From a virus: 64,000 nucleotides of DNA. Made by a program: the position numbers and the translations under genes. This document shows, piece after piece, positions 22,687-57,753 of this stretch (its first letter is position 1; each line of letters opens with the position of its first letter). Under the pieces are notes generated by a model. The model made no database searches. It was given only the letters and a program-made list of their open reading frames with translations, and was not told where the DNA came from. The stretch covers positions 5,363-69,362 of IMG/VR virus record IMGVR_UViG_3300000304_000008; one strand, given 5' to 3'.

Positions 22687-23694
22687 ATGTATAATAAAGA
22701 GAAAGCTAAAAAGCCAATCTATACTTTAGATTGGATATTATCTAAAGTAACAGAATATGATATATATGCTAGTTACTTAGGTGAATTTAAAGTAGGACTT
22801 ATATATAATAGTCCATTTAGAGAAGATAAAAATCCATCATTTGGTATATACTATAGTAAAAGAACTCAACAACTTTTATTTAAAGACCATGGTACTGGTC
22901 AATGTGGTAATGTGATTAAATTCGTATCTCTAATAACAGGTAAGACTAATTATGATGATATATTAGAAGATATAGTAAATCATACTCATATTACTAATCG
23001 TACCAAATTAGCTAGCTCTAAGCATTATATACCATCTACAGAGACAATTATAGGCGTTGTAAGACAAGATTTTACTGAAACTGATAAGAAGTATTGGTCA
23101 CAGTTTAATATTAGCTTAGAAACGCTTAAAATGTATCATGTAAGTAGTATTAAATATTATTTATGTAATGGTATTGTTAAAGGTATATACAAAGATGATA
23201 ATCCTATGTATGCTTATAAAGTATATAATCATTTTAAGATATATAGACCTTTAGCAGATAAATACCATAAATGGCGTAACAATCTTGAACAAAACGATAT
23301 ACAAGGTTATGAACAACTACCAGAAGTAGGTGATTTATTAATTATAACTAAATCAATGAAAGATGTTATGTGCTTTCACGAAATGGGTTATAATGCTATA
23401 TCTCCTGCTTCTGAAAGTACATTTATCTCAGACATCGCTTTAGAGACTATTTTAAGGCGATTTAAGACAGTTTTAATAATGTTTGATAGAGATGGTGCTG
23501 GAGTTAATTATCTTCGCAAAATAAGCCAAAAAACAGGCTTAAAACCGATTTTAGTCCATCGTAAGTTTAAAGCAAAAGATATATCTGATGCAATTAAGCT
23601 AAATGGATTTAAAAAAGTAAAAGAATGGTTTGATAAAGAAATGAAAAAATATGTAGAACCAAAAGATAAAGAATGCAACAGTAACAATTGTTGA
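22687..23694 (+). CDS. dnaG: DNA primase (DnaG-like, TOPRIM)
   Basis: SPFREDKNPSF zinc-ribbon-like region, TKSMKDVM, MFDRDGAG (DxD), KDISD. Confidence 0.88.
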   Translation: MYNKEKAKKPIYTLDWILSKVTEYDIYASYLGEFKVGLIYNSPFREDKNPSFGIYYSKRTQQLLFKDHGTGQCGNVIKFVSLITGKTNYDDILEDIVNHTHITNRTKLASSKHYIPSTETIIGVVRQDFTETDKKYWSQFNISLETLKMYHVSSIKYYLCNGIVKGIYKDDNPMYAYKVYNHFKIYRPLADKYHKWRNNLEQNDIQGYEQLPEVGDLLIITKSMKDVMCFHEMGYNAISPASESTFISDIALETILRRFKTVLIMFDRDGAGVNYLRKISQKTGLKPILVHRKFKAKDISDAIKLNGFKKVKEWFDKEMKKYVEPKDKECNSNNC

Positions 23695-24040
23695 TAATAT
23701 AAAATTTAAGTCTAAATTAGAGGCTTATACATATCAAAAGCTGAAAGAAGCAAATATAGATGTTCAATATGAACCAATCAAATATGAGCTACTTCCAGCT
23801 TTTATTTTTAAAGAAAAGAAAATAAGACCTATTACTTATACACCAGATTTTGTAAATGATAAATTTATTATCGAATGTAAAGGTTATCCTAATGAGAAAT
23901 TCCCATTAAAATTAAAACTTTTTTATTATTACTTATTAAATAATAATATAAATAATATTAATTATTATATAGTAAAGAATAAAAAAGACGTTGATAATTT
24001 AGTAAAACAACTAAAAGATGAGAATACTAGGTCTTAGTGA
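23651..24040 (+). CDS. PD-(D/E)xK endonuclease (endonuclease I / resolvase-like), 129 aa, TAG at codon 2; absent from ORF track
   Basis: ATG TAG AAC CAA... gives MQNQKIKNAT...FKSKLE...YEP...YTPDF...IIECKG; ends TAG TGA. Confidence 0.8.
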
Positions 24041-24857
24041 TTTGCATGGTAATTTATTAGAAACTATACCTAAATGTGATGTACTTTGTTTATGTGGAGA
24101 TATAATACCATTAAGTATACAAAGAAATAATCAACAATCAGAGTATTGGTGGAAAAATAAATTTACTTCATGGATAAATAAAATAGATTGTAAAGAAGTA
24201 ATAGTAGTACCAGGTAATCATGATTTTTATTTTGAATGGTTGTATTGTTTATTAGATAATAATAATCAGCATACTGAATATGATAATTTTTGTAATTTAT
24301 TAAATTATATATGTAAAAAACCAATTCATATATTAATTAATGATAGTGTTACTATTAACAATATAACTTTCTATGGTTGTCCTTTTGTACAACCTATAGG
24401 AGGATGGGCATTTGAATGTACTACTCATAAACAAATAGAAATACCTAAATGTGATATACTATTAACTCATGATAGTCCTATAAAGAATCATAATTTAGAA
24501 TATTATGGTACAGGTAAATCTAAATATTGGTTATATGGACATTGGCATGAAGGAGAATCAGATTATGCTAAAGACTGGTATAATTGTTCACGTTTAGATG
24601 ATAGATATTGTTTTAAAAAGAATTATAAATACGTATTAATCGATATTAATATGCCAAAAACAACATTTGAAATATTACAAGAATTTGCAGAAGAAATTAA
24701 AGATTATGCTGCATCATTACTTGATAGTGAAACTGAATATGATAATTTTTGTCATAAAGTTGATGAAATATTTATCAAGTACATAGATAATCCTAAAGAT
24801 ACAGAAGATGAAATTCCTTGGACTGATTCTTCTATAATTAATGATATGGAGGATTAG
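24018..24857 (+). CDS. calcineurin-like metallophosphoesterase
   Basis: SDLHG, CGD, GNHD, THD and GHWH motifs. Confidence 0.9.
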   Translation: MRILGLSDLHGNLLETIPKCDVLCLCGDIIPLSIQRNNQQSEYWWKNKFTSWINKIDCKEVIVVPGNHDFYFEWLYCLLDNNNQHTEYDNFCNLLNYICKKPIHILINDSVTINNITFYGCPFVQPIGGWAFECTTHKQIEIPKCDILLTHDSPIKNHNLEYYGTGKSKYWLYGHWHEGESDYAKDWYNCSRLDDRYCFKKNYKYVLIDINMPKTTFEILQEFAEEIKDYAASLLDSETEYDNFCHKVDEIFIKYIDNPKDTEDEIPWTDSSIINDMED

Positions 24858-24859
24858 AT

Positions 24860-25852
24860 ATGAAAGAAATGGACTTATCAATATCATATTACGATGACCT
24901 TCAAAGAATAAGTAACAGTGCTATCGGAGTATATCTAAAGAAAGGTCCATTAGCTTTAAAACATCTTATGAATGGAGAAGATGAAAAACTTAGTTTACCT
25001 GCATTAGAAATAGGTACTATGATTCATGAATATATTCTCCAACCTGAAGAATTTTGGAAAGATTATTGTATACTTGATTTTACAATACCTAAAGTAAAAC
25101 AGCAAAAAGATTTATTAGATGAATATCATAGATTAATGGAAATAGATCCATTTAAATCACAAGATGAAATCAAATTAGCTGCATATAGAAAAGCATACAA
25201 TAATAAAAAGAAAGATGATAAATGTATTAAAGAAACAGAAGATTTAATTATGGTTTATCAAGATTACTTAGAATATTTAAGTAATAAAAATAATAAAAAA
25301 GTTATATCTTTTGCTGATTTAAATACATTAAAAAAGATTAAACAAAATCTTCAAGAGCATAAAAAAGCTAATGAATTATTGTTTAATCTATCTGATAAAT
25401 GGGAATGTTATAATGAATTTCATATAAATTGGGAATGCCAAAATGTGCAATGTAAATCTCTACTAGATAGAGTATGTTTTAATTTTGAAGAAAAGAAAGT
25501 TATTCTAATAGATTTAAAAACTACTCCTAATGTATATGATTTCAAACATTCTATAGAAGAATTTGATTATTATAGACAGTTATCATATTATACTATGGCA
25601 ATATTCTGGTATCTTGAAAACATTAAAGAATTAAATCCAGATGATTTCGATTTAGAAGTATATATTATTGCTATAGGTAAAGATAAAGATAATCAAATTC
25701 GAGTTTTTAATATGTTAAATGAAACAGAATTAACAGTAAGAGGAAAATTACTAACAAATACTCTCAAAGCTATCGATTATCATATATCCTCTAATAACTG
25801 GGAACACAGTAAAGAGTATTATGATAGCACAGGAATCGAAGAAGTATCTTAA
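24860..25852 (+). CDS. PD-(D/E)xK exonuclease (RecE/RecB-like)
   Basis: ISNS, GTMIHEYIL, KSLLDRV..IDLKTT, YYRQLSYY. Confidence 0.85.
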   Translation: MKEMDLSISYYDDLQRISNSAIGVYLKKGPLALKHLMNGEDEKLSLPALEIGTMIHEYILQPEEFWKDYCILDFTIPKVKQQKDLLDEYHRLMEIDPFKSQDEIKLAAYRKAYNNKKKDDKCIKETEDLIMVYQDYLEYLSNKNNKKVISFADLNTLKKIKQNLQEHKKANELLFNLSDKWECYNEFHINWECQNVQCKSLLDRVCFNFEEKKVILIDLKTTPNVYDFKHSIEEFDYYRQLSYYTMAIFWYLENIKELNPDDFDLEVYIIAIGKDKDNQIRVFNMLNETELTVRGKLLTNTLKAIDYHISSNNWEHSKEYYDSTGIEEVS

Positions 25853-26411: not shown

Positions 26412-29400
26412 TTATTTATCAAGCTGTGATTCAAGATATTGCCATTTAATACGTGCTCCTTGTGATTCCCAGGCTCCTCGTAAGCCAGGAACAGATTTTA
26501 TTAAAGTACGCTACCATTTTTCCATATCTTTATAATATCCAGATTTAATTACATCTGTTGAATAATTTTTATCAAATCCAAAAGGATTTACTAAATTTAA
26601 TGCATTTTCAAAAGGTGTAATAGCTGGTGAAACGTTTTTAATCTAATTAACTAAGTCTAAAGGATTATATTCTGAAAACTCTTCAAATCTTAAAGCATCT
26701 AAAGTATATCCTGTTATCTATTTTAACTAATTATCTTTATCTCTTTCAGCTTCTGGTTTTAGCCAGAAAGCTACCAACAGATATAACATTCCAACTATAC
26801 TTAACTACATTAAAATACGCTTCATATTATAATATTCAGGATTTGTATAACTTTTTTTATTTTGCTGTGTCTATTCTTTATTTCCTAGATGTTTTACAGA
26901 ATTATATAAGTTATATAACCATTTACCTATACCTACAAATCCAGATACATACTTAGCCTCATCATAATCTTCTATTAAAGGATTATACTAATAATTTTTA
27001 AATAAGTTTTCATTCATATTAACTATAAAGAAACTACGGTGCATTCCAATAGCAGCACCAATAGCATTTTGGAAAATAGAAAGTTTATCTTCTGTCTAAA
27101 GCTAACCATCTATACGAGAACACAATATGCTAGATATATTCTTTAAGCTCTACTAGATAGTTTTATCATTAATAGCTTCTGAATATTGTTCATACTCTGG
27201 TTTAATTACTAACTTACCATTTTTAACTTGATAAACGTCAAGCATAGAAATAGTATGAAGATGATTAAACCTTTTTCTTTTCTATTTTATTGTTTCATTT
27301 GGGAATAACTTTTCATACTAAGTAAATGTCATAAACTTACCATATTCAGGTATATACTTAGTATTAGCGTAAACTGATTCTACAATAGGTACTTTTACCA
27401 TAAAATCAGCAGCTTGCCAACCACCCCATACTAAATATTTATAAAATATTCTAAATAATCTATTATACTATAAACCTTCTACTTTTTCTCTAGTATCATG
27501 AGCTATACCATTATGTTCAAGTAAAGCATAAGATATATCATTTTCCATGGCATTACCTATATTAAGTAAACGCCAAGGAGTACGCCATAACTGTCTTAAA
27601 AATGATTTACTTAAGTCACTCATAGTATAGAACTATCCAGCAAAACCTTCTACAAAAAATTTATCAAATCCTTGTAATATACTTTTACCAATAGATAAGA
27701 AGTTATTACCTAAGTTAGAAGCACTAGCGTATCTCTAAATTAAACTAGCTAACTTAGTAACAGATATACTATATACTTTACCATTTCTTTTAAATTCCCA
27801 TGTCCAAGGTTTTGCAGTTCTACCGTATAATTGCATTTCTATATAGTCTCTTAGTCTATTAGAAGTATTAGATTGCTTACCTTCTATATTACTCTATATA
27901 AAATTATTAACATTCTATTTAGTAAAAGTACGAATATCGTATAAGTCCTATATAATGTCAAACTAAGATGCCTACTCATTCTTTAATCTATAGTTTTCAG
28001 CCATTCTACTATATTCAGATAACAGCCCAATTAAATTTCTAGATATATTTTCAGGATGTTCAAGCATCTTTACATAGTGAGTAGGTACTAGATTTAACTA
28101 TGTACCGTCTGCTTTAGTAATAGAATTATCTAAAGCAAATTGAGTATCATCGTTTCTAGCTACTATAGAGTCTCTTATCATAAAACCCAAGTTCTTAAAG
28201 AAGTTACCTTGTCTCATAGTAAAGTCTATAAAATCACCAGTAGCTTGTGGTAATCTATAGTTATCTCTTTTACTCATAAAGGATAACTTACTATTAGATT
28301 CATCCATAGTATCTACTATTAACTTATATATATCCTACTATGCTTTAGTTTTAGTAGCTTCTTCATAAGCTTTAGAATTATCATATAATTCTTTTTTAGG
28401 CTGATAATATTCAGGGTCTTCAAAATTATAATTAGGGTTAATCATATTAGAATTTTTATCCAATTCTTGATTCATCCTACTTAGTCTATATTCATACTTA
28501 AAACCCGAATCTTTATTAATTATTAATCTGGTATAATAAGAAGCTATTCTTTCGTTGCCTTTAGCGTCTCTATAATGATTGGCATTATACCATTTCTAAT
28601 AAGCTTCTTTTCCTTTAGCTTTAGCCTAAGCTTTATCTCTTTCATATGAAGTTGTCGGTATTATACTAGCTATTTTAAAGAATTCTTTATCTGCTTTACT
28701 ATGTTTTGAGCGTAATTCGTTAATCTATCTGTCTAATTCTAATATACGTTCTTTAGCTTGTTGCGTATATTTTTCAGCTATGTTTATAGGATTATTATTA
28801 TCTCTACCTAATTGCAATAGCTATCTTCTTTCTTCATATAACTAATCATATAAAGCCTAATCTGAACCAAAATCAACAGTACTTAAACCTTTTATTGCTT
28901 TAATAAAATCTTCTGGAAACTATAAACTTATATTACGTCTAAACCATTTTTCATATAGTTCTGGACTTAATTCTTTTTGTTTTTGTTCCATAAGTTTTAA
29001 CACCTATTCTTGAGTCATAGTTTTAGATTTAATATTACCCTATCCTATAGAATCATAAAATCTCTAAAACTCTTTAGCTATTTGTAAATCTTCGCCCTAT
29101 TTTAAATTACCATCTAAATCATAATCGTTAGATAAATTCTTTTTCATAGAATAAAGTTTATCTAATCTAGCCCATTCACTTTCAGATAACTGCTCAAGAT
29201 GAGGTCCATCCTAATCTGTTACACCTTCTATTATTGCAGATATTTGTTCAGAATATATTTTTGATTTTTCTCTAGCCAACTGACTTAACTTGTTATATTC
29301 TTGATAATATGCATTTTTAAATTTACGTTCACAGTGTTTTTCAAGCCATTCTTCCTTTTCTTTGCAATAATTAATAAAATCATCACCTTCTAACAGATAA

Positions 29401-31733
29401 TAATTCTAGTCTACTACTCCATATCTAGAATCTAAATCCGATAAAAATTCATGATAATCTTTTTTAAACTATCCATAATTTAAGGGTCTTACTAAATAAC
29501 CAGTTGCTTTACCATCTTTATCTTTCTCAAAGTATAATAACTACTGTGATTTAGTTATATTACTAAATGACCTAATTAAATCTTGTGTTTTATTATTAGT
29601 AAACCACTATACTTGACTATTTATATCCGTCATCATTCTATTTACCATTCTGATACCCATGTCAGAAGCATTAGAAGCAAACTATAAATAACGATATATA
29701 ACATTCATATCCTTAGCAGAATTGTTTAATTTATCATTTATAAACTATTCTACTTCGTCGGTTTTAAATCCGTATTGCTATCCTTTTTCTTTAAAGATAT
29801 TTATCACTCTTTGTTTAAGTAAAAAGTTGTATTTACCCTATATTTCTTGATATGCTTTATTGATTAATGATAAATTATTTTTAATATTCTCTATCTACTC
29901 TGGAGACAGATTATTAAAGTAACCCTAAAAGAATAGTTTTCTATTTATATCTTCAGTAATAGGACCGTAGAAATCTAAGAAGTCATTTTTAAAGTTCTTT
30001 AAATCATCATTTGTAAGTATATTAGGATTAGATACAGCTTTTCTAATTATATTTAACACTGGTCTAAACTACTAAGATGCACGTGTTATAAACTCTGATA
30101 ACACTTCCTAGTCTTCACCTTTCTATAACTATAAAGTATACCTTGCTATATCCTACTGTAATTTAGTAATCTATACTGGAGATTTATCACGTGATTTTAA
30201 AGCCTTTTCTGATGCTTTAAGACCGTTCATAGCTTTTTTTATGATGTTGTCAGCTTCTCCTTTCAACCAAGAGTAATCTACATCTGTCTAATAAAACAAT
30301 TCTTCTCCTGTATCTTCTAAATCAGGGTCTAATTTACGGTTATTTACAGCATCTTGTATGGCATTATATGCAGAATATACATCATTAGGCTATAGTTTAT
30401 TAGCCATTTTAGTGAGTTTTAAGGCATTTAAAAGTGAGAATAGTATTCTCCTCCACCATGACATGTTTTTCTTGATTACAGCGTCTCTAAACGCCTTATT
30501 TACGTATAACTCTGATATAAACTCCTATGGACTTGTTAAACCATAGTATAAACCTTTTCTTTTATATTTAGATTTAGGGAACTATTCTGATACTTTGTTA
30601 AATAAGTTATCTATTTTACTTTTAAAGAAAGTATTATTCTTATACTGATTAATAGTAAAATGATGAAGTAATTCATGCATATAAGCATTAGTAATATCAT
30701 AATTACTAAGACTATTAAAAGAGTCTATATTTACTCTAATAACACCATTCTAGTAAGACATTACATAATCTTTATTATTTACCAATTCTACCTATACATC
30801 ATCAGCTAAATTATCAAATAAAGACTAAGCTAACTAATACTGTTCTTCTGTTAGTATATTATTATTTAATATATTATTTAATACTGATTTAGCAGATTGC
30901 TATCTGGTATTAAACAATTTACCTATACCCTACTTACCAGCATAATATGAATTAGTTTGTTTAGTAGATATATTATCTTTTATATAATTATATATATTAT
31001 TATCAGTAAGAGAGAACTAACCATTATTGTCTATAGATTTTATTTGATTAGAGTTAAACACAACAAACTCAGTAGAATTGTTCCAACTACTAGTAGCTAA
31101 TCCGTCTATATTTTGGCTCTTTAATTTTTCTACATCTTCTTGTGTTATATCTTGATAATTAATATAATTTTTATCGAACAACTTGTTTATATTTTTTAAA
31201 AACTATAGACCGTAAAACTATACTTGTTTTATATTCTATATATTTTTAGCAGATATAAATACTGGATATATCTATTTATTTTTACGATAAGCCTCAGCAT
31301 ATTGTTCTGCTACTTTCGGTTTGTTTATAAAATATATTCCCATCTAGTTGCTACGATTTAACACCGTGCTATGTAATCCAGCATATTTTTTTGGCAAATC
31401 TTTTGGATTAACGAATTGTTCTATACCCTATGGTCCACCGTGATATACTATCATCGGTTCATTATTTTCGTCTATTACTTTAGAACCGTAAAACCACTAT
31501 CTAAATTCATTAGATAGTGTTTTAGCTTTAGCTTTTATAGCCTTATTTCTATCTTTATAATAGTCATATAAGTCATTAAATAGCTTAGACTATGCCCCAT
31601 TAGGGGCATAATCCAAACTATAACCATTATTCTAATCCCATACATAATAAGCTGTATTCTCACCTAGAACAGAGACAAGCTCATCAAATTCTTTTTTAAC
31701 CTAAGGATTACTTAAATTTGGACATATTATCAT
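26412..31733 (-). CDS. large virion ejection/cargo protein (1,773 aa, TAG=Gln) with ART-PolyVal-like and zincin HExxH domains
   Basis: Starts MIICPNLSNPQVKKEFDEL; one frame to triple TAA when TAG is read through; WFYGSKVIDENNEPMIVYHG...VVFNSNQIKSIDNNG; MHELLHH. Confidence 0.8.
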
Positions 31734-31735
31734 AA

Positions 31736-34700
31736 TTATTCTCCTTTACAATTTTTCTTAATCTGTTCACCATCTCTATTCATCTATTCTATATCTGGGT
31801 CACTTTGTAACTCAGATTCATCAAATGTAGCAAAATCTGCCAAGTTAAATGGTTTAGTTGGTTGTTGCTGTTCTTGTACCTATTGAACTGTTGATTCAGT
31901 TTGAATTTGGACAGAACCAAATGTTTTCTAGAATACTTGTTCAATAGCATTGATACCTTTATCTGTTATTTCCCTAGTACCAATACCAGCAAATTTAGGT
32001 GTTAACGTAGGTATGTCTTCAGCTACAAACGTATTATCGTTGTAATCAAATCTATACCATTGGTCATACACCTAATCATATACATGAATAGGTTTGTGCA
32101 AATCAATACCCATTTGAACAGCATAACCAGTACCACCATCTACACTAGGTATAGTGCTACGTACAGTATATCCTTTAGAATTCTTTTCACCAGGTCTTAA
32201 TATATGACCTATAGCAAATATAGAATCAGCAGCTTTAGCTTGTAGATAATCTCTACGTACTAATTTACCAGCTGTAGTATTGCCGTTTAATACTTTTCTA
32301 CCTAGCCTGTTTGCAGCAGCAGTATATTGTGTTTCTACTTCCTGCATCTATTCTGGAGTAAGAACATCCAACGTTTCAGGTCTATAGTGTCTTATCTTAC
32401 CTATATTATACTTACTAGCTATTTCACCCCATTTAGTATCAGCTCCTACTGCTCCACCAGAATATAAATGATAATCTTTTGGATTAGCAGATTGTTCTAT
32501 TTGAGTCTATTCTGAAAGCTAAGTATTATTATTATCTCTTATATAGTTTAGTAATTCCTGATATTTTTGCTGCAAATAATTATAGATTTTAGGTACTCTT
32601 TGCTATGTAATTTCACTTATAGGACCATTAAACAATACATCTCCACGACCAAATACTAATTGTTTATATCTACCAGTATCCCATTTACGTTTGATGTATT
32701 CTATTTCTGCGTCAATAGTAGTCTTAAATTCATCAAACGCATTATCTGTCCATCTCCCAGATTTACCTTTAGCTCCTTCATGATACCATCTCTAAGTACT
32801 AATTGGCATAGCGTTATTTAACCCTCTAATTACAGCTTGTGTTTCTTTAGTAGGATAATGTTTATTTTTACCATATTTTTGGGCATATTCTGAGTCAGGG
32901 TCTATTAAATTTCTGCCTGAATCTCTGTCTGTATTATCAGTAAAGATAAATAGTTTATCTTTTTGATTTTCTACCTCTCTTCTAGTCCAATTATGGTCGT
33001 AATTAGTAACAATATTTTGGTCAGTTATTACTTCTCTAGTACCTGTAATAGCATGACTAGTTAATACTACAACATTATCTTTAGCTCTACTCATAGCAAC
33101 ATATTTTAATTGCTGTTTAACTAATGGGTCACTAAACCTATCAATAGTATCAGCATATATTAAAACGTTATTATAAGTACCACCTTGAGATTTATGTATA
33201 GTATGAGCATAACCATAATCTAATGCTTTATGTAATAACAACCTATTACCAGAACCAGTATAATCTCGCATAAGTACAGTAGAAGCTTCAAATTGTGATT
33301 TTAACTACATTAATTTATTAGCTAAATCGTAATTATGGTCCATAAATGCTTGACTAATTTGGGTATTAATGTATTTCAAATCGTCAGATAATTTCTATAA
33401 AGTTTCATCATCTGTATCATTACTTACTACAAATACTGTTCTCTTACGATTATCTTCAGGTCTAGCATTAGCTTCGTCTAATACAACATTATATCCTTTT
33501 ACTTTAACTTTAGATAAACCTACAGTTCTAGTTTGTTGCTCACTAACTTCAGATACTACATAGTCAATACTGTTTGCTATCAACTAAGCTCCATCCATAT
33601 CTGGGTCTAGTACATTACTATAACCCATCATTACATCTCCTACTTCTATCTACTTAGGATTATCCCCAAACAATATCCTTCTTACTCTATTGTTAGCATC
33701 AGAAATCATATCATTTGTAGCACTAAGTATTCTAAAGTATAATGGATTAGTTTTAAACTCAGCAGAATTAACAATAGTATCTATTACTTCGTTTGCTCTA
33801 TCTGTAGAATTAGTAAACTCGACATTGTCTCTGGTTTCATAACTAAAGTCTTGTTTGTTACGTAATCTAGTAGATTCTGCTAATATTGCATTATCACCAG
33901 TTCTTTCTACCTTAGTTAACTATAACTTAGTGTAATTACCAGTAAATACAGGAGATATAGTGTCATCATTAACAGGAGCTAACTGCGCATCGTCACCTAC
34001 ATAAATAATTTTTACATTGTGGTTATTTTTATAGTCTTCAATAAACTAGAACAAACCTTTACTAATCATAGATGCTTCATCTATAATTAATACACTTCCA
34101 TCTTTTAATTTAGGTCTATTACGTTGTTGATTCTTTAATTTACGTAAATCATAGTTACCGTCAGTTAAATCAATTACATTAGTAAGACCAAATAATGAAT
34201 GTAAAGTACTTACATCTGCTTCAGGGTTATTCATTCTAGTAACAGCATTAGCTCTATGAGTTGGTGCTGAATACTTAGGCTTTATATACTTAGATTTAAG
34301 ATATTTGTCAAATATACCTATTAATGTAGATTTACCAGTACCAGCATATCCACACAAAGTAATTACGTTACTATACTTTTTAGGATTAGTAACAAAATCT
34401 TCAAGTACTAATAAAGCTTTAGTCTATTGTTCATTTAATTTAAATGGTATGTTTACTTTAGTACCATCTTTAAATGTAAATACATTAGCTTCTGTTTGTT
34501 CTACTTCAATCTAATCACCCTAATCTGTCTACGTAGTATAATCTTGGGTAGATTCAGTATTTAACCCTAACGTTAATAAATTAGTATATAATGCCTATGT
34601 TACAGGAGTTATATCATTTACAGCAACGAAACTATTTTTTATTTCAGTTATCCAATTATTAACATCTGTTTCATATCCTAATTTCTAAATAGTATTTATT

Positions 34701-37700
34701 ACTGATTCTGGAGTGATTATACTATTACCAGATATAGCATTCTTAATATTATTAAAATCAAATATACTATCAGAAGAATTATTATACTCTTTTATTACTC
34801 TACCACCTTGATTTAAACCTTTTTTATAAGTTATAACATATAAAGGTGTTTCATTACCTTTATTATTTAATACTGTACCAACATATTTGTAAAGTAATAT
34901 ACCTTCTGGAGTAGTTCTATCTACTACTACTTTCACATAAGGAGTATACAAAGGTTGTTCTAAACTATTTTTACCGACAGTCGGTCTATTAGGATTAAGC
35001 ACAATAGGTACTCTAATCTTAGAATTATTTATAGTAATATCACCATATAGTATAGGAAATCTATCAGCATCATATACTTCACCTACTTCTTCATCAAACT
35101 ACTATATTTTAGTATCTATAGTAGGTACTATTTTACTATTATTCCAGTTATTTAAAAATAAATCATTATAATTTAAATCTGCTTCGGTAAAATTCTTTAC
35201 AGCGTTGTCTATATATGAAGCATAACCACTATTTAAAATAGCAGAAACTGGCAATAAATTCCATATACCGTTCTTAGTAAAGTTACCAGCAGTTGTTGCT
35301 AACTAATAATCGATTAAATCATTGGCAAAATTCCTAATTTCCTCATGTGGAGATTCTAATAACTCTTCCCAATATAATTTAAGGTCTTGTTTTAAGAATT
35401 TATCAGTTTCATTTACTCTGTTAGTAGCTATAATAGCAGGCGCATTATAAGCGTCTGTACTAAATCTAGCTAAACTAGTTAAATGGTCTAATAATTTATT
35501 AGCTATTTTACCATCTGCTGTTAACAATTCAGGATATTTACCTTGTATAATATCGTTTTTAATGTTAGCTAATCTCTAAGCCATAGAGTTTTTGCCGTAA
35601 AACATATTATATAAGTTAAATCCATCAATATTGTTTAAGAATTTCCACCTAATCTAACCTTCTAATTCGTTAGATATTGTTTTGTTTAGAGCTTCGTCGT
35701 TTACATTATCCATTCGTGTTAAAGTTAACACTTTAGTTACAGAATCTTTAAACGATTGTTTACTTCTAAACATAGTATCCTAGAATATAGAAGCTGGTAA
35801 TATCATACCATTTATAGCTTTAGTAAGTAAGAAAGATTCAGCAAAGTATTTTTCTACATCAGCTCTATTAAACAGCGTAGTAGTATTTAAGAAAGATTTA
35901 AGACGATACATAAATCTATCTTGTTCTACAAAATTACCACCGTATCTTTTAGTATCGATTTGCGACAGCTAAACTAATTTAGACATATCCTAAGCTAATG
36001 TGTTTAACTATAAGAATATTTCAGAATATCTTAGCTAGTCTCTATAATATTTAGCTTGCACGTCTGCATCTGCTGTATCTATAGCAGATGTATCTAATAA
36101 TGCGTCTATAAGGTAATCTCTACCCATCATTACAGGTGCATAATCTTCTATTTTTACATTATTACGGTCTATTAAATTACCTCTGTCATTAAAATCTAAT
36201 TCTACAGGTACACCAGATTTAGCACAAGCTTCTGTATATTTTTTATAGTAATCTCTACGTATGTTACGTATCTCTTCATTTACTATAGAAGTTTTACTAC
36301 CTCCTTTCACACCATATATACCGTTAGCTCTTTCATAAGCTAATGCCATCTATTTAAGTATTGGTTGTGGTAAGAAGTAAAACGTATTTTTACCAAATCC
36401 AGCTCTAAGTAAGAAGTTACAAATATTATAAGTATATTGACGTACATTAAGTCTAATAACGTATGGGTCTTTAGCAACGTCTACGTGAGCGTTAATCATT
36501 GCTGAAATCCAATCCAATATATTAAGACCTTCTTCCTATATCATTATAGGAACGCCGTTATCATCGTATTTTATATTACCGTATTTGTCTCTTTTATATA
36601 CAGTTTCATTTTGAGATTTAATACCATTCAAACCAGTAAAACCAAGCGATTTTAATAACGTATTATCTTTAAATATTAAATTGGTTAACTAAGTTATTAC
36701 ATGGTTTTTATTATTTAATGCAAAAGGTCCAATACCTGTTTTACCTCCACTATACTCATACTTCTTATTCATCTAGAAAGTAGGAGATAATTCTAAGAAT
36801 GGAACTTCATCACCTTTCTTCTAATTACTGTCTACTACAGGTAATATTTCATTTTTAATTACACCTGTTACTTTGTCAAGAGGTAATCTTGTTTCAGTAA
36901 TGTTTTTATCATCAGTTAATACTAGCATATATGTATCTAATAGTAAATTTTCATTTGCTTCTCTACTATTAGCTTCATATACATTAGTAGGATTACCTAA
37001 TCTGTTTAACCAGTTATTAAACAGTCTCATAGTAGCTTCTTGACCTCTTTCAGAACCTTCAAAGCTACCACCTTCTTCTTCAATGTATCTGCGTTTTAAA
37101 TAGTCTTCAAAAGATTCATCTTTCTACAATCCTTTAAATTCTATTTTATTACCATCTTTGTCAAAATTGTAACGGGCGATGTATAATTTATCAATCGGTT
37201 ATCTTTATACTTTCATATAAAGCCTGACTATATCTTCAGTCTGACAACTGCTCCCCATTTCGCTTTTCCAGCTACTCTACTCACTTCTTCACCTTTCGGT
37301 TATGCTTTCGATAGTCGATGAACTTTTACCTAAACGGCACTTAGCTGCTGATTGTCCAATCTTACTTTTCTTAAACATTCGCACTTACCTTTTCAAGTTA
37401 TGCTGTAGTAAGTAAGCTCTAAGGAGTTTCCAGCAATTAAAGGAGTTTTACTTTAACGTTGTTGTATAATTAATACAATTTTCTACCATCAAAATCTGAG
37501 CCCGTTTGAGTAGTAAACTCATCGGGTAATACAATTATATCACCAACATTGCTAGGTAATACATCTTTAATATGTAAACCAGCAATAGATGATAAACCTT
37601 GAGTAGGAATACGATAACCCATAGCTATAGGTCCAGCATTGTCACCTATAAGATTATGAGCTATCAACCATTGCTTAGCTTCACTAAATGATTTTTTATC

Positions 37701-40700
37701 AAAATCAGGTATAATGTGTCTAAATAGATTAATACTAATTTCGCAATCCATACTACCGTCATCACGTACATTTATTAATCTACTAGATTCTACTCCTATT
37801 TTCTTAAAACCAAATGAAGACATCTAAATAAATGCTCCACCTGGTAATTCAATATCTACTGCTTTCTTGTTAGCAGTAGAAGTAAGAGTAGTTTCTACCC
37901 ATTTACTATCTGGTAATGCAGCTAAAGGTACAGTTAAACCATCTTTATCGTCATTTACAGCTAACGCTGCTTCCAAGTCTCTACCCATATTTGATGAACG
38001 AGCTGCCCTAACTAATACATCAGAAGTTTTGGACCAATCTAACTCTCCATCCGTAAGGAACATTTCCCTCATTTGCTCTGCACCTTTATTAGATATAGCA
38101 TTAATTGTACCAAATAACTGGTTTTTTAACTGTTGCCCAGTACGTTGCATGTCTTCAGGTTTACCTTCACCATACACTCTATCCATTTTAAGATTGGCTA
38201 CAGCCACAGTTGATACCTAAGTACCAAATAACTACCTTTCATGAGTATGTGGGTCTGTTATTAACTGTCTACGAAGATTCCTAAACTCCTATATAGTAGT
38301 ATGTATATTTGTTAAATCATTTATCTATTCGTTATTATAATCTTTGTAGAAGTTCTGTCCACCTTCTATACCTACTTTAACAGCCGACTCAAACGCAATC
38401 TAATCTATAGGTTTAAGACCTGCGTATTTGCCAACAGCGTTCATTCGTTCGTAAATGTCTAAATTATCACCATTTGCTAATACTTTAAACATAGGGAACA
38501 TTGCCATTTTATTAAATACAGGTACGTTGTGCTATAGATTATTATCGTATCTATATCCAAAATAAGTAGTTTTAAGAGCCTTTATAAGTGTTTTAAGAGA
38601 CTTTTGATATAATACAGGGTCGTTTAACCAATCTTCCGCTGATTCAAGTATATCATAAGCTTCTTTTACTTCATCAGACCATTCACCAAGCATTCTAATT
38701 ATGTCTTGATACATCTGTGGTCTAATATATACAGCAGCATCGGCTTGATTAATGTTACCCTATCCGTCACTTAAACCATAAGCGTCTGCATCTTCTTTAG
38801 CGAGATTACCAGCTAATTCGTATATAAAAGGATATTGTTCTTTAGCAGACTCTTGATTCTTCATCAGTTCATCTACCTGAGATTCAGTAAGACCTTCTTT
38901 CTCTATTAACAAGTTTCTAACATTAGCATAAGTAAACTTATCTAATAAAGTTTGATACTATTTAGAAGGTATCATATTATCATTGAATATGGCACAAGTA
39001 TAAGTCTACCTAGCTTGTAATCTTCTATATTCAGGTGTGAACTGAGGATTGTTAGTTAACCATTGAGTACGCATATTATCTCCAGTAGATAATACAGCTC
39101 CAAGGCGTTTAATCTAGTCATCAGTATCTTTATAGAAAGCTAAATCACCTGTAAATATCTTTTCTGTTTCTAACTTAGAAACATTAGCATTTAACATGTG
39201 ATTACCAATCATAGTCATTACTGCATACCTATCAGCATTATTACGTATAGCTTGATTTGGAGAATTTATATACCAACTTTTAACTTCTTCATACACTCTA
39301 GAATCCATTAATTTATTACTTAATTTTTTAGGATTAGTAGAATCTCTATTAATTAGTCCTAAATTACAAGCAGTTTCTAATTCGTTCTAAAGTTCTAAGA
39401 ATAGATTATTATTTATTCTACCTTCTGTATATTCTATTTTATCTTGAGTAAATAAATCCTATCTTATCTATTCTAATGTTTCTAATACTGTACCATTCTT
39501 TATACCAGCATCTATAATCTTATTTAAATCTATATAAGTACGCTTACCATTTACTACTTCATAATAACCTTTAAAATGTCTAAACTTACCACCAAGGTTT
39601 TTAGTGTGATAATTTTTAATTTTAGTAGTCACATTGGGTAATGATTTCCAGTACTGAACTATAGATTCAAATTCATCTTTCCAGTATCCATACATCTAGT
39701 CTAACGCTTCCTGGTCAAACTATATGTATAAAGAACCATCTTCTTGCTATGTTATGTTAAATGGTTTGTTAAACAAAGTACACCCAGATATTACATTCCA
39801 AGTTTTCTTATCTGCCATAGTAGGGAATATGATAAAATTATTCCACGTTAACGACATTTTTAACACGTAATCCTCTGTAGGCGATACTTGTAAATATTCC
39901 CTACCTTTATCACCACTATTGTTACCATAAAAATTAATAAATGTGTGTAATTTTATAGGGTGATTAGAATTTACTGCTGATTTTATTAAAGATGAATTAC
40001 AATATATGTCATTATTTATACCAGTTAAAGTAGAAGCGTCGTGTTCATTAAGTCTACGGACTAAATCAGTACAATAATTATTTTGTGTTTTTAAATAAAA
40101 TATATTGTTGTTAGGTCCTAACACATTTAGTTCGTTATTCTATGGAGCAGCAGTAGCCTGGGCATATGCAATCCTATTTATAATGTGGTCTGCTCTACGT
40201 CTAGTGTATATCTAATCTAATTGTACTGCTCTACTAGGTTTGTCCGAAGCAATATCTGCTAATATTACATCAAATATAGCACTTAACGTATTAACATCAC
40301 TACTTCTACGTCTAGATACTAATTGTACTAAATTACGTTTTCTATCTCCTCTTAATAATTCTTCAATAGCCTCATTGTCTACCTAAATACCAACAGAATT
40401 TAACAAAGCAACTATACCGTTACGATATACGTCTATATCAGTATCAGTCATAGTGGCAGAGTTTTTAAATATATCTTTTACTAACTAATCATATTCTTCT
40501 ACTATTTTTCTAATTACTTTTTTATCTACTGTAATTTCAGTATCAGATTGCTTTACTAACGGAGAATTAAAGAAAACAGATGACCAAGCAGTAGGTAACA
40601 TTCTAATAGTACTCTTAATTGTACTATCTGTTACTTTAAACTAACCAACGCCATTTTTATCGGTAAAATAACTTACTTCTATTGGATTAAGACTAGCAGA

Positions 40701-43700
40701 TTTTACAGTTTGTAATATCTAGGTTTCTAGATTACTATCTTTAATACTAGATAATCGATGATATAGAGCCGCAAATATAGCCTTTTCTCTAGATAAAGTA
40801 ACACATCTTCCTAACAATGATTTATTTGGGTCATCACCTGGAGTAGGACTATATGTTTCTATCGAACCTAATTTCTTTAAAGCTTGAGTAGCTACAGTAT
40901 CATAATCGTAAACTCTTGGTAAACCAGTAATTGGGTCTTTGCGCATTTTTAGCAATTTGTTCTTACCGTTGGGAGTATCTATATAATCATAATAATACTC
41001 CGGTATTGTAGATAAGAATAGTTTTACTATACCTAAAGCATTATCCTTTTTACTAAACTCATGTGCTGCTTTACCGTAGTTCTGTATACCTGTTTCTTCT
41101 CTATCTAAGAAGTCATTCTCTTCATTATTATCTATCTCCCTAATGCCTAATTGAGCTAACATTGGTTGCATTTCATACATCCAATCGTCAAAATTATCTA
41201 TTATTTCTTGTATAGATTCTTTTTGTTGTGTAGTAGTTTTAGAACTAGATACAACTCCTTTAAGCATATCTAATAATTTACCTTTATTAAGGTTATTTAT
41301 ATCAGATATGAATTTAACTCCATTAGCTATTAATAAACAAGAGCACAAACTACTCATAGTTGTGTGAAAATCAGATAATGTAGGGAAATGATTAGGCTGA
41401 TGAGTGCCATCTTTACCTACTTTATAATAAGCTTCATTATCAATATAAGCGTTTTTAAACTCAGCTACACTAGCTTCATTTAATTTATATGATTTAAAAT
41501 CACCATACTTAATAGCTTGATAAATAGAATTAAGATTTCTAGGATTTATTCTACGATTTAAACCGATAAACTTAAGTATATCTCTAAATATCTTATTAAT
41601 ATAATATCTTAATGTAGACTATTTATCATTAAGCATATATTCCATAAATCTATCAGCTAATGCTTCTTCTAATACCTAGTCTGATACATTTCTATACTGA
41701 GGATATTGTTTACGATATTCTTCATACAGATTCTTCCTCATTTCAGGAGTAAGCATTAACAACGATACTCTATGCCATGCTTCATGATACTGTACACCTT
41801 CTACTGCCATATTAGATATATTAATACAATCTGCATTACATACACCATATACAGCAGAACCATTAGCAAACTATCTAATTACTCCATCTGTAATAGTTAT
41901 TTGCTCATCTGTAAGACCAAATGTACGTTTTAACCATTTAACAGCTTTAACTGTATTAATACGTTTAAAGTGTCTTAACTAAGTTCTGTTAGATATTTTA
42001 TATGCACCTAAATTTTTGAATAGGTCATCTACATTCATACCATCACCAGAGAATAGTTCATCAACCTAATCTTGTACTTCTTTTGAAGTGGGATCCTTAT
42101 ACATCAAGCGTTCTACTTTATTCATTGCTTGGTCAACTGTAATTGCTCCGCTATGAACAAAGTCTAACAATTGCTCCAAATATCTCAATACTGGTAAAGG
42201 TGCAGTAGTTTTCTAAGAAAAATTAGAAACTCTGTCATGCAATTGCTAATGTGTGCTATTTATATCTTCAAATATTCTTCTTATAGAAGACCTTAAATAT
42301 TTTATCTGCAATTCTGATAAACTTAAACTAGTACTTTCAGCGCTAGTCCAATTTTGTATCGTTCCGACAGGGTCGCTCTATAAAAATTCTTCTACATTTA
42401 CTTCTTGTGAAGCAGTAGGTTGTTCGGTTTGCTATACTTGGTCACGTATAGGATTTAAAGAATTTTGGTCATATATTCTTTCCTAACCATCAGGCATACG
42501 AACACTAATGGTACCATTACCGTGAACTCTGATTACTTCACCAATTATATCACCAGATGGTCTCCATATAGAAACTTTATCGCCTACTTTAAATTTAGAT
42601 TCTTTAACAGTTGATGGTTCAGGATTAATTGGGTCTTCAGTTGCAGTCTTTAATTGCTATTCTTGTTGAGTAGGATTATCATTTATAACAGGTTCGCCTA
42701 CATAAATAAAAGGACTAGTATAAATCTAATCTTGTAAATCAGATTGTAATTTACCTTCTTTTATTAACCATTCTAGACCAGTATAACCATTATCTCCAGG
42801 TATAGGTTGTAATGGATTCCTAAAATCATTTACTTTCTATAAACCTAAATCTTTAAGTGTAATCTTAAATCCAGGAGCTAATTCTATTTCATCTGGAATA
42901 GTATTTAAGTCCATGTTACGATAATGAGACCTAAAATAAGAAGTAAACATATCTCTCATAGGAGTCTATAAACCTTCATAATCCATAGACCAGTGAGAGT
43001 TTTGTTTAATGAAGTTTGTTACTTCCGCTAACCCCTAATCGTTTTGATATTCAGCTAATGGTCTAATGGTAGTACCTAACTATAGCATTGGAGTTTGGTC
43101 TTGTGTAAACAGTTTAATCTGTTTATCAGACATTATATCAAATCTAGGGTCATTCTCACTTATCTGTTCCCAATCAGTAAATATCAATAGCTTACGTAAA
43201 GGTTCTGTATCATACCCTTCTCTTGTCCTAGAATATAATACAGCTTGAGCCGCTAAATCTGCTAAAGCATTATCTTCATCTGCAAATCGTTTCTCGTTTA
43301 ATTTAATTACAGAATTCTATAATCCTGACGGGTTACTATTAGCAGAAGGAATGATAAATATATTACCGTATCCACCACGTATTGCTTGCCCATTTAAATT
43401 TTGTTCAAGATTATATTTAAGCCCAGGGTCGTTATTCAATACAGTTAACCTAAAATTATTTCTATAACCTTCACCTATACCGAATGCTATATCTGTATCA
43501 AGTAATCCATGTAAATCTGATGGTAAATTTAATCCTTTAACTTCCTGTAGATTCCTATTTACAGCAGCTTGATATGTCTAACCATCTCTAGTAACAGTCT
43601 ATCTGTTAGCATTCAATTGACCATTAGTCATTCTAACATGATTGAATGTAACAGTAGCATTAGGATTACGTAATTTAGCCTCTATAATAGTATTTCTAAG

Positions 43701-46700
43701 CGTTCTAAGACCATTTTCTTCTTCAGGTGATAACTACTACCCGTGAGCTAATTTAAGCTGTTTAGCACCATCTATTGTCTTTAAAGCTGTAATGTACTGT
43801 TTACCATCAGGAGCTTGTATTGTAACATATACAGCTGCATTATCCCATGTCTTTTTGTCATTAGGGTTATATGCGCCATATTTAGAATTAGAATCAGCTA
43901 CTTGAGCAGTAATAGAACTATTACTTATATTACCAGGAGTAGAAGAGAAAGTGTTAAAAGAGCTACCAGATTCATAACCCTAAAACATTGGAGTATCTGT
44001 ATTCTAATAATACAAAGTACCTTCTGTTAAATTGTTATCTGGTTGTGGAGTAGGAAGATTCTAATTGCCTTCTACCAATTTATCTTTATATTCTTCTGAT
44101 GTACCTTTATCAACGATTTCAGGTTTATTAACAGGAGCTGCTTCAGTAGGTATAGTTCTAGGAGTTTCAGTTTCCTATTCTTCTCCCTGTTCAGCCTAAC
44201 CCGTTTCATTAGGGTCAAATGTTGAAAAACTAGTTAAATCAAAAGGTTTACTTTGCGATTCATCAGATTCATTAGATGCTCCTTCGTCTGCCGATGTAGT
44301 AGGATTATCCGAGTCATTATTAATATTAGACTCCTACTATTCATTTATAAAATCCTCTTCGGTCAATTCATCCTACGTATAATCGTCATCATTTGTATAT
44401 GGCTCAGAAGGGTCATATGTGGGTAAATTAGTTATATCAAAAGGAACTTTTGATTGTGATTCAGGAGAAGGTGAAGCTGGAGGAGAAGGAGGAGTAGGAG
44501 GAACCTAAGGAGTAGCTGGTGGAACAGGACCTTTAGACTCATCATTACCGTTATTATCGGATTTATCTTCTGATTCTGGTTTATTTTGAATCTGTTCGTT
44601 ATCTGTACTTAATACTACTTCTGGTGTGTCTGTAGCAGCAGTGTTATCGTCTGTTCTTTCAGGTTCTACAGTTGAAACATTATCTTCAGTATTATCTACT
44701 ACACTCTGTTTGTACTTATCTATAGCAGCTTGCATTGTAGCTTTATCTGAACTTAATTTACTATAGTCTTGTCTAGTTTTACGTAAAGCTCTATCTGCTA
44801 TAATTGTTTGTAAGAATGTACTTTTAATATTGTTAACAACGCCACGTAATGTTTTATTCTCAACAGTTTTATCAATACCAGCTTGTTTTAACGATTCGTT
44901 AATATAATTAGCTTCTTGTTGTAATGATGATTGATTTAAATACATTTCATCAATTAAATCCATCATTTCTGGTGTTGAATGTCTTGCATTAGCTCTTTTA
45001 AGTTTGTTTAGATAACTACTTATGGCTTGTTGAGAATATTTATTTAAAAAATAATTAGTTAATAAAGTAGCATTTTCTTCAGATAAACCTTCTGTATTAC
45101 GTATAAGTCTATTTACAGCGTTCTAAACACTATTAATAAATTCAGGAGTACGTATAGAATTATATGAAGATTGCATTCTATCAAGTATATCTTCATTGTG
45201 CTTAAGTAAAGCAGCAGCGATTGGTCTATCTGCACGATTAAATTGTCTAATAAAACTATTATTTTCAATTATATCGTATATATCATTTATATTCTACTTT
45301 TCTTTTTCTAAGTCTTCCCTGGTCCAACCTTCCGGTAAGAAATCATCATTAAGTTGTGTATCAATACCATCTAGCATTGCTTTTCTATCAGCCATACGCA
45401 TGTTGGCTTTCTCACCATACTTGATGTATTTATATACATCTTCTTTAGCTTGTATCTATTCAGCCATCATATGACGAGCTAAGTCTCTACCGGCAGTATA
45501 CCCTCTATAATTACGTACACCATCTCTTATATTAAGAGGTCCACCCATCAGAAAACCGATAGCCATACCAACTTTAAAATTATCGGCAAGTTCTTTATCA
45601 GAATTTAATGCGGGGTCACCACTAATACCAAGTACACCAGCCATACCTTTTACGAAAGCATAGCTATTTTCAGCCATCATTTCAACAGTATCAAAAGGAT
45701 TATACCAATCTCTATCTTCATCAGAAGGGTCTCTAGAAATCATATACTGTGTAGCTTCTTCGCCACCTTCTAGCAAAGCATTAGCCCCCATCCTATATAT
45801 AGGTTCTACAACATACTTCATAGCACCACTAGCGGCAGCTCGCTTAGCTGCACTAGCACCGGCTTTACGCATGGTATAGTCTACAGCCTTATCTAATCCT
45901 TTATATATTAAATTTGTACCTACTTCGCCAATATTGGAGTTCTATAAAGCCTTACCAATGATTTTACCTGCGCCAGGTATCATAATAACGTTCTAAGCTA
46001 AATCTACACCAACTAACGCCATATTACGATTATATACATCATTTAATCTATTCTTTGCGTCAGCGGCAACAACATTTAGCTCATCTATACCAGTATCTAT
46101 ATCATATGCCAGCATTGCATCTAACACTTTATCATCAGATACGGTAGAATAGTCTTGACCAGTAAGAGCTGTAAGTCTTTGTCTTACTCCTGAATTAGTA
46201 ATAGCACTAAGCGGTAATTGATTTTCATTTAAAAAATCATAGATTTTACCTTTGTACGCACCAGATACTTCAGCTAATGACTCTTGATTGCGAGATAACA
46301 AAGTACTACCTGCCATTAAACTCATACCTAAGTATGCACCACCAGCTGTACCGGCAGGACCTGCGAAAGAACCAGCCGCGCCTAATAAAGTAGCCGCCCC
46401 ATATGCTGCTAAATTAGTAGCCATAGAAGGAACAGAGGAAGCTATACCTGCTGGTATTTGGTAAAACCAATTTTTCTTTTTAGCATCTTCCCATTCATCA
46501 CTTGGTTTATAAATAGAATCAACTTGGTTGAGTAAACCTTGCCAGAATTCCATATCATCTCTATCTGTATTGATATACTCATTAAGTTTAGTCAAACGGT
46601 CATTGATTTTGTTTATGCGCTTATCAATATCTTCATCCCGATAGTATTTATTATAATCTTCTCTTTCATCGTTCATACGAAGATAATCTTGTCTCCATTG

Positions 46701-47288
46701 GTCATCCATAGATTTGTAAACAGAATATTCTTCGTATGCCTAATCGATTTCATCCTGATTGCCAGAACGCATAGCCTAGGTTAATTTACTCCTAGTTCTA
46801 TTTAAATCTTTATAGTTTTGTAAATATTGTTTCTAAAAATTTAAATCATCAGATTCTTTCTAATCTCTAAGTATATTACCTATGTTAGATTCTATAAAGT
46901 TTTGTACACCACTTCTTAAAAAGTCAAAAGCAGCGTCTTTAACAAACCCTTTCTTAATATCTTGAGATAACTAATTTGTAGTATACGGTGTACCAGTTTC
47001 AAATGGATTTGTTGCTTCATTAATATTGTATTTATTAAGTTCCGCAATTTTATTACCCAACTTCGTAAAGAACCCTGGTTCTTCAGAGCTACTTGATTGG
47101 TTAGCTTCTGTATTTATAACAGGAGTTTCACCAACATCATATCTATCAATCAACTATTCCGCAGGACTATAAATCACTGCGGAATTAGTATCATTACTAG
47201 AAGATGCTGTAGCTGCCTAAAGTAACGCTTCGAAACCTTTGTCGATTTGTTCTCTACTGCTTGCAGTAAGTTCTGTATTATTTGCCAT
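31736..47288 (-). CDS. giant virion RNA polymerase polyprotein, join(37488..47288,31736..37195), ~5,086 aa, TAG=Gln
   Basis: All ORF-track fragments fall in one frame on each side of the intron; catalytic GSDFD|IDKLY; HEAWH zincin (~41770); SF1B helicase motifs; SLOG-like GGAVGAD domain near C-terminus. Confidence 0.82.
37196..37487 (-). mobile_element. ORF-less group I intron (292 nt) in the RNAP catalytic motif
   Basis: Exon TTTTGAT pairs with IGS GTTAAAG (U.G), ATCGACTAT/ATAGTC P7, terminal G; removal fixes the frame shift and restores DFDID. Confidence 0.88.
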
Positions 47289-47293
47289 AATTG

Positions 47294-55472: not shown

Positions 55473-55473
55473 A

Positions 55474-56373: not shown

Positions 56374-56375
56374 AT

Positions 56376-57496: not shown

Positions 57497-57620
57497 ATTA
57501 ATACGTATTAAATAATACCTTTAAAACGTATTTTAAGCTTCTCTGTGACATTTTGTGTATTTAGTAATACATTCGTACCAAAACTCAATAGCTTTTGTTA
57601 TACGACTTGTATTTAATAAA

Positions 57621-57748
57621 TTGCGAGCGATGCGAGCAATATGTGAGCATCGCGAGTAATTTATTACGATAGTAATAATTACGAGCTTTTGCACTACATT
57701 CATGTAGTGAGCGAGTGCTAACGAGCGAACGTGTGAGCGATGCGCGTA
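57621..57748. repeat. cluster of imperfect RYGAGY repeats with two small hairpins
   Basis: About nine copies of gcgagc/gtgagc/acgagc; hairpins TTATTAC-GATA-GTAATAA and CACTACA-TTCA-TGTAGTG. Confidence 0.6.
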
Positions 57749-57753
57749 ACAAT

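Follow-up and report, generated by a model that had tools for sequence, protein, structure and literature searches.

Stop-codon recoding has been described in phages as a means of blocking the translation of late and lysis genes (Ivanova 2014; PMC7886860; 10.1101/2021.08.26.457843; 10.1101/2022.06.29.495998), and the reading of TAG as glutamine (Gln) has been proven by proteomics in crAss-like phages (PMC9523058). The usual layout places a suppressor tRNA with the anticodon CTA (Sup-CTA) at the 5' end of the late strand (10.1101/2022.06.29.495998), and the crAss-like replication machinery is stated to be in the standard code (10.1101/2021.08.26.457843). The present analysis concerns a 64,000-nucleotide (nt) stretch of the IMG/VR virus record IMGVR_UViG_3300000304_000008 (positions 5,363 to 69,362 of that record; the whole stretch analysed is called the window below), in which the gene for a resolvase-like nuclease, here called the resolvase, carries an in-frame TAG as its second codon. 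We propose, with a probability of roughly 0.6, that this TAG is a selected single-codon translational gate on the resolvase. The general principle of recoding as a timing device is already published; no mention of the resolvase was found in the key publications on phage stop-codon recoding that were searched for it.

The locus shares several features with the published recoding of late and lysis genes, including an in-frame TAG that is unreadable in the host code and becomes Gln once the phage tRNA(CTA) is present, and a genome in which the replication strand is compatible with the standard code, the late strand is recoded and the suppressor stands at the head of the latter. The published cases are block-wise, with many TAGs per gene, whereas the resolvase gene is a lone exception within a standard-code block and typically holds one TAG, in its first ~10 codons. 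A second precedent is the group I intron homing endonuclease with in-frame TGA in an early gene of the TGA-recoded Agate phages (10.1101/2021.08.26.457843), likewise a DNA nuclease among early genes, and one whose production is predicted to be blocked by its recoded stops until late infection. That enzyme belongs to a mobile element, in another phage clade and with TGA read as Trp, and its reported feature is a gene-wide preference for recoded codons, whereas the resolvase is a core phage gene with a single conserved codon near its N-terminus.

Translational delay of a resolvase also has a parallel in phage T4, in which endonuclease VII serves mainly for debranching at packaging and can also cleave forks that have stalled or regressed (PMC3016281). 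Where late genes of T4 are part of early polycistronic mRNAs, their translation is repressed, in an account that has the gene 49 paper among its citations, and hairpins sequestering the ribosome-binding site are described for I-TevI, soc, e and others (PMC2988022). In both systems a packaging-stage enzyme would be co-transcribed with early genes and delayed at translation, but T4 relies on RNA structure and a late promoter rather than on codon reassignment, and endonuclease VII is an HNH-type enzyme unrelated to DUF1064, the family of the nuclease studied here.

The resolvase gene is complete only when TAG is decoded

The gene occupies 23651..24040 on the plus strand (TGA stop included) and encodes 129 amino acids (aa) when TAG is read as Gln. 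Its ATG (23651..23653) is followed immediately by the in-frame TAG of codon 2 (23654..23656), the proposed gating codon, which lies 5' of all catalytic residues. The nearest upstream TAA or TGA in this frame is the TGA at 23642-23644, leaving the frame open from 23645, and within the TAA/TGA-bounded frame 23645-24040 this ATG is the sole canonical start. A listing of open reading frames (ORFs) under translation table 11 held nothing of at least 40 aa on the plus strand between 23694 and 24018, so no ATG, GTG or TTG follows the TAG in the resolvase frame, and the standard-code product of the gene is Met-stop only. Orthologues are annotated with starts that align with this ATG, which also fits the family N-terminus, since the Pfam match begins at profile position 5 with residue 8. 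At its 3' end the gene carries a tandem TAG (24035-24037) and TGA (24038-24040; together 24035..24040, as read from the sequence and its translation), of which the TAG is the stop in the standard code and the TGA ends the protein one Gln later with TAG as Gln. With a recoded stop upstream of all essential residues and no alternative start, the gene is TAG-dependent and yields a complete PD-(D/E)xK nuclease only when TAG is decoded as sense. An earlier note on this DNA had described an ATG-TAG start with no other in-frame ATG ahead of the catalytic motifs and, with TAG as Gln, a 129-aa PD-(D/E)xK protein ending in TAG-TGA; the coordinates, the frame, the translation and the Pfam match bear out this description.

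The source genome is a single contig of 99,603 bp whose relatives are Crassvirales of the family Suoliviridae. Its TAG-recoded late block lies partly inside the window (26412..61146, minus strand), with ORFs holding 74, 36, 65, 12, 13 and ~23 TAGs; the first three of these encode 1773, 1764 and 3272 aa with TAG as Gln. That the phage decodes TAG follows from these tens of in-frame TAGs, and across the late block of the whole genome there are 373 of them, making up 37% of Gln codons. A 74-nt cloverleaf tRNA with the anticodon CTA was called by ARAGORN at genome positions 97773-97846 on the minus strand, outside the window, directly 5' of the first recoded gene at the late-block head and 6 nt from a tRNA-Met(CAT) (the pair spanning 97696-97846, minus). 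Individual late-gene TAGs turn over quickly: 25 of the 74 TAG columns of a late gene in the window are CAA or CAG in L017, an independent metagenome contig whose late protein is 73% identical, and 20 are still TAG.

Ahead of the tRNA-Met(CAT)/tRNA(CTA) pair lie some 20 small minus-strand genes without TAG (genome 98124-99352 and 1-5751). TAG-free genes also occur within the recoded late strand, at window positions 57533-57817 and 58636-59139 and at genome positions 82440-83423 and 86595-88064, including ORFs of 489 and 327 aa; they may encode highly expressed proteins whose synthesis is thus independent of the suppressor.

The encoded protein is a PD-(D/E)xK nuclease and probably a junction resolvase

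The 129-aa protein matches Pfam PF06356 (DUF1064) with 40.3 bits against a cut-off of 24.7, over residues 8-97 and profile positions 5-103 of 117, and phrog_190, annotated as Holliday junction resolvase, with an E-value of 5.8e-13. DUF1064 was placed in the PD-(D/E)xK superfamily by Kosinski et al. (PMC1189080). A profile built from 17 orthologues matches T7 endonuclease I (1m0d; E 0.0036) with alignment of the FRSxLE, TYxPDF and ExKG motifs, and residues E24, D66, E75 and K77 are invariant in both orthologue alignments (17 and 28 sequences). T7 endonuclease I, the product of gene 3, resembles the DUF1064 protein in its PD-(D/E)xK core with aligned E...D...ExK residues, in its length of ~130-150 aa and in the location of its gene in a phage replication/recombination module. 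It differs in that the sequence relation is distant (E 0.004-0.03) and its domain-swapped dimer superposes poorly with the monomer model.

The AlphaFold (AF2) model, computed from 28 sequences, has a predicted local distance difference test (pLDDT) score of 87.5 and an alpha/beta core whose element order is that expected of the restriction-endonuclease-like alpha-beta-beta-beta-alpha-beta core. Residues 1-10 are modelled with low confidence, and the N-terminal tail is probably disordered. A Foldseek search of the PDB with this model gave no significant match (E 0.07 or more). In an exhaustive structural comparison the top ranks were all PD-(D/E)xK nucleases with moderate scores, all with Z below 8: I-Bth0305I (7.9), VRR_NUC (7.3), TnsA (7.0), Bax1 (6.8), Vsr (6.2) and Hjc (5.5). 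Membership in the PD-(D/E)xK nuclease family is sound, and Holliday-junction or branch resolvase activity is probable, as suggested by homology, the annotation of relatives and the gene neighbourhood. No biochemical test of a DUF1064 member was found.

The resolvase is the exception in an otherwise standard-code block

The plus-strand block was surveyed over window positions 396-26363, comprising ~50 ORFs and ~6,800 codons with the resolvase left out. Its other in-frame TAGs are terminal and usable as stops (genes ending at 2651, 14002, 19530 and 24857), except for one that stands directly before an ATG (19558-19563), and the polB gene, which encodes 633 aa (15470-17371), has no TAG. The resolvase is the sole plus-block gene of its own genome that needs TAG to be read, and the claim of the earlier note that the replication block is otherwise TAG-free is borne out in the sense that no other TAG in it requires decoding.

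The TAG before the ATG at 19558-19563 had been considered as a second gated gene (start at 19549, TAG at codon 4), and this candidate was rejected, as an ATG follows at once and no decoding is needed. The sequence ATG AAA AGA TAG ATG at 19549-19563 forms a four-codon start-to-TAG mini-ORF, in frame with and abutting the ATG of a 69-aa gene. A similar TAG stands right before the resolvase ATG in three standard-code relatives, L004, L070 and L079 (NKS-TAG-ATG).

Five plus-block genes end in TAG when the resolvase is included (2649-2651, 14000-14002, 19528-19530, 24855-24857 and 24035-24037), each with a back-up TAA or TGA 1-20 codons further on. With the suppressor active, the five proteins would gain C-terminal extensions of ~1, 2, 6, 20 and 20 aa, and TAG seems to have two roles in these genes, ending translation at the early stage of infection and coding for an amino acid at the late stage.

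The same specificity is seen among relatives. A scan of IMG/VR returned 5 loci with a single-protein query and 80 loci, taken with 10-kb flanks, with an alignment query. Each locus was classed by the TAG content of its opposite-strand late ORFs, giving 55 recoded loci, 16 standard-code loci and 13 without a late gene in range. The 55 recoded loci provided a comparison set of 707 other same-strand genes (180,218 codons), of which 40 hold a non-terminal TAG. All but one of these 40 are accounted for, either by a start within 0-10 codons downstream, at which homology generally begins, or by a TAG that is a real stop between two genes or at an exon end. The exception is an ambiguous 190-aa ORF in L061 (9185-9757), whose TAG is codon 8 and whose next start follows 21 codons after it; leaving it aside, none of the 707 neighbours needs TAG decoding, which makes the resolvase a specific exception.

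Within the resolvase, the TAGs are concentrated in the N-terminal tail ahead of a V(K/R)NAT motif. TAG makes up 7.1% of codons in the tail and 0.20% in the body, against 1.77% in late genes, and its share of Gln codons is 63% in the tail, 9.6% in the body and 35% in late genes. Only 15 of 105 late ORFs hold a TAG in codons 2-12. The pattern of the resolvase, typically one TAG at the very start, is thus unlike that of early genes, which are TAG-free, and that of late genes, which hold TAG throughout.

Among the TAG-ended reading frames of relatives, the polB homologue of three loci ends at a TAG after ~420 codons (L046 2152-3492, L058 1540-2880 and L060 1667-3007), a pattern compatible with a polB interrupted by an intron, such as has been reported in crAss-like phages of the Delta group.

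An N-terminal TAG recurs in recoded relatives

A TAG 1-8 codons after the ATG and before the V(K/R)NAT motif is present in 44 of the 55 recoded loci (41 of 50 distinct sequences), and in none of the 16 standard-code loci does a TAG follow the resolvase ATG. The earlier note had named the lack of such an enrichment among recoded relatives as an outcome that would speak against its proposal, and the enrichment is present. In none of the 44 loci does a canonical start follow the tail TAG, either before the NAT motif or for at least 29 codons beyond it. The distance between the tail TAG and NAT takes seven values, and at least 16 distinct tail sequence contexts for this TAG occur across the whole recoded clade; the tail-TAG state persists across relatives while the tail sequence itself changes. 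On the independent contig L017, a 95% identical resolvase has the same ATG-TAG and the same TAG-TGA end. Taken with the counts above, the ATG-TAG arrangement goes beyond what chance would produce.

The public genomes give a similar picture, with nine orthologues that have a TAG 2-9 codons after the ATG among 16 Suoliviridae genomes. RefSeq carries orthologues named Holliday junction resolvase in cr53_1 (KNV47_gp51), cr113_1 (KNV54_gp33) and cr56_1 (KNV48_gp33), and these coding sequences from sister Suoliviridae share the same ATG and are annotated through an in-frame TAG at codon 3-10. They differ from the present case in being annotation only, in which the TAG was given no significance. In cr52_1 (L008, NC_055888.1) the orthologue at 677-1057, with one tail TAG and two body TAGs, is unannotated in RefSeq; gene prediction with code 11 across the replication block will overlook the resolvase gene or call it too short.

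The tail TAG itself is translated, to judge from the continuity of the tail across it and from body TAGs that align with Gln. The tail is rich in Lys and Arg before as well as after the TAG and matches that of relatives without a TAG, and in relatives the TAG is aligned with K or Q (MKR-TAG-RKKKEGKV against MVRKRTKKEGKV), and the body TAG of the cr113_1 resolvase aligns with Q in cr109_1.

In the resolvase homologues of Steigviridae and Oafivirinae (L101-L105) the ATG is not followed by a stop, which is uninformative either way. The correlation of code status with tail TAG on a tree of primase, resolvase and exonuclease was set aside as uninformative, as the standard-code loci form a single clade. 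In L018 (9977-10657), which has a very long tree branch, the resolvase frame runs through two TAGs into ~100 more residues, a C-terminal extension that may be fused or read-through.

Gene neighbourhood

Upstream of the resolvase lies a gene for a DnaG-type primase of 335 aa (22687..23694, plus strand; Zn_ribbon_DnaG and Toprim_2 domains; phrog_12622, E 5.5e-42), which is without TAG, is read in another frame and overlaps the resolvase start with its last 44 nt. Downstream, the gene for a metallophosphoesterase (24018..24857, plus strand; Metallophos, 42.2 bits), termed 'Mre11-like' in the annotation of a sister phage, has its ATG 23 nt inside the resolvase 3' end and ends in TAG with a back-up stop two codons on. 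Next in this packed co-directional run is an exonuclease gene without TAG (24860..25852, plus strand; phrog_412, E 1.8e-23). No terminator-like site was found on the plus strand among the primase, resolvase, phosphoesterase and exonuclease genes. A scan for sigma-70 promoters gave a chance-level result, with a consensus that does not apply to promoters of Bacteroidota or of phage RNA polymerase. Because the resolvase is wedged between overlapping neighbours (44 nt and 23 nt), transcription signals of its own, or separate transcriptional control, are unlikely.

A putative translational gate and its alternatives

Under the proposed gate, translation would start at the ATG at 23651 and the TAG of codon 2 would be read as Gln by the phage tRNA(CTA). 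In early infection the neighbouring genes would all be readable in the standard code of the host, but a ribosome starting on the resolvase would meet the TAG and should be stopped there by the host release factor, with only the Met made. Full-length resolvase would appear only after the suppressor tRNA, encoded at the head of the recoded late strand, has accumulated. One TAG ahead of the catalytic residues would uncouple resolvase output from that of its neighbours and would move production closer to packaging, the stage at which DNA branches have to be resolved, while its N-terminal position would also avoid truncated fragments. Gln at codon 2 is expected to be harmless, as residues 1-10 are predicted to be disordered. 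We infer the delay of the resolvase itself, and with it early termination at the TAG, the timing of the suppressor, co-transcription with the neighbours and harm from early expression. The gate should open at a lower suppressor level than the late genes, since one TAG rather than tens must be read, and the resolvase would then be the first among the TAG-dependent products. More tentatively, and with odds slightly short of even, the TAG could be a selected dose-sensitive switch that opens at the first appearance of the suppressor, such that the resolvase is made between replication and packaging. The earlier note had proposed the single gating codon on the strength of this one sequence; the TAG-dependent frame, the presence of tRNA(CTA), the neighbours without internal TAG and the enrichment in relatives now support it.

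Several points weigh against a selected gate. Six of the 55 recoded loci have a TAG only further in (codon 19 or ~codon 30) and five, a cr4_1-like group, have no TAG in the gene, which indicates that the gate is dispensable or replaceable; it is common but not obligatory among recoded relatives. The recoded loci form one clade, and so are not phylogenetically independent and the count of origins is uncertain, and positional homology is hard to judge in a low-complexity Lys-rich tail. A Lys codon AAG becomes TAG in a single step and the tail tolerates Gln, such that relaxed constraint could explain part of the N-terminal enrichment. The resolvase activity is deduced from family membership, with structural matches that are only moderate (Z 7.0-7.9; Foldseek E at least 0.07).

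Relaxed constraint is the basis of the explanation that comes closest to the gate, namely permissive drift, in which TAG is read as Gln without a regulatory role, the resolvase is needed, and perhaps expressed, late, and TAGs collect in the disordered tail. Single-step changes from AAG or CAG to TAG in the Lys/Gln-rich, least constrained part of the protein provide a route, and drift would agree with a tail that is predicted to be disordered and is highly variable, with the rapid turnover of TAG, CAA and CAG in late genes, with the presence of CAA/CAG Gln codons in the tails as well (26, against 44 TAG) and with the recoded relatives that have no TAG or a body TAG only. Yet under drift a late-class gene should have TAG at ~35% of its Gln codons throughout, rather than the 9.6% and 63% seen in body and tail, and a tail TAG is found in ~80% of distinct sequences against 14% of late ORFs (codons 2-12). 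Drift also predicts TAGs in other dispensable or variable N-termini of the block, where 0 of 707 genes need TAG to be read, and there is no room for a late promoter of the resolvase's own. We consider drift unlikely on this balance. Phage junction resolvases are needed in small amounts, and the TAG could, on another account, be a dose limiter that competes with the release factor throughout infection and keeps the nuclease low rather than late, its N-terminal position avoiding truncated fragments able to poison the dimer. The usual single TAG per gene, its avoidance in the body and its constant position before the catalytic residues are all compatible with this, as is the general knowledge that small amounts of such enzymes suffice. 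Late proteins with 36-74 TAGs nevertheless need near-complete suppression, under which a single TAG is not limiting, and before the late code is on the effect would be indistinguishable from a delay; we regard a dose limiter as improbable.

Explanations in which the TAG is never translated are less probable still. Translation might begin at a rare downstream start (ATA at codon 6 or ATT at codon 13), the ATG-TAG being incidental or a regulatory mini-ORF. ATA and ATT are table-11 start codons, the ATA at 23666 would leave a complete domain, given a Pfam match from residue 8, and one or the other stands between TAG and NAT in 6 of 18 distinct tails. The remaining 12 of the 18 have no table-11 start in this interval, and a rare start at ATA, ATT or CTG was rejected on that ground; the downstream non-ATG start that the earlier note had given as a refuting outcome is thereby not supported. 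The codon two positions upstream of NAT is GTA or GTT in 37 of 49 loci, the ATG always lies 1-8 codons 5' of the TAG with no TAA or TGA between them, homology between the Lys/Arg tail and those of standard-code relatives spans the TAG, and the in-frame TAGs that some relatives hold in the conserved body make decoding obligatory, all of which leaves a downstream start very improbable. Least probable of all, to the point of being nearly dismissed, is that the gene is a pseudogene, an assembly error or part of a primase-nuclease fusion formed by frameshift in the 44-nt overlap. The standard code does give Met-stop only and the primase overlap would allow a +1 shift, but no catalytic residue varies and the frame is otherwise clean. 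A sequencing error was discarded because the same ATG-TAG is present on the independent contig L017. A fusion is opposed by the variety of preceding genes, which include an HNH endonuclease in cr125_1, small ORFs in cr4_1 and cr6_1 and a same-frame, non-overlapping primase in cr56_1. The tail TAG is kept in cr125_1 and cr56_1, while the cr4_1 gene has no TAG and that of cr6_1 only one further in; frameshift fusion was rejected as a general mechanism, as both the upstream gene and its frame vary among the tail-TAG relatives cr56_1 and cr125_1. The possibility that an overlapping upstream gene forces the TAG was also rejected. Among the 44 loci, 32 have a nearest upstream ORF of at least 80 aa that ends before the TAG and 11 more have none of this size within 400 nt upstream, in what is a crude test with small ORFs left out.

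The timing idea for stop-codon reassignment has so far come mostly from block-level correlations, in which late genes are recoded and early genes are not. A lone enzyme with a clear late role that breaks the block pattern through one codon at its very start, repeatedly and across a large and abundant human-gut phage family, is the signature expected if recoding is a regulatory device and not just a by-product of code drift. If the dose-sensitive switch suggested above is real, the resolvase would be the first core replication/recombination gene individually timed by genetic-code switching and would provide a natural built-in reporter of the code change during infection. The minimal testable element consists of ~15 codons and one tRNA, and could be used to measure the timing and sharpness of the code switch and the harm of early resolvase activity.

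Other features of the window

Two further features were recorded. A 2.1-kb stretch at 10830-12929 is without an ORF of at least 80 aa under either code, and a permuted transfer-messenger RNA was called by ARAGORN at 5630-5987, with the tag peptide GNKFVTDYTRIAA.

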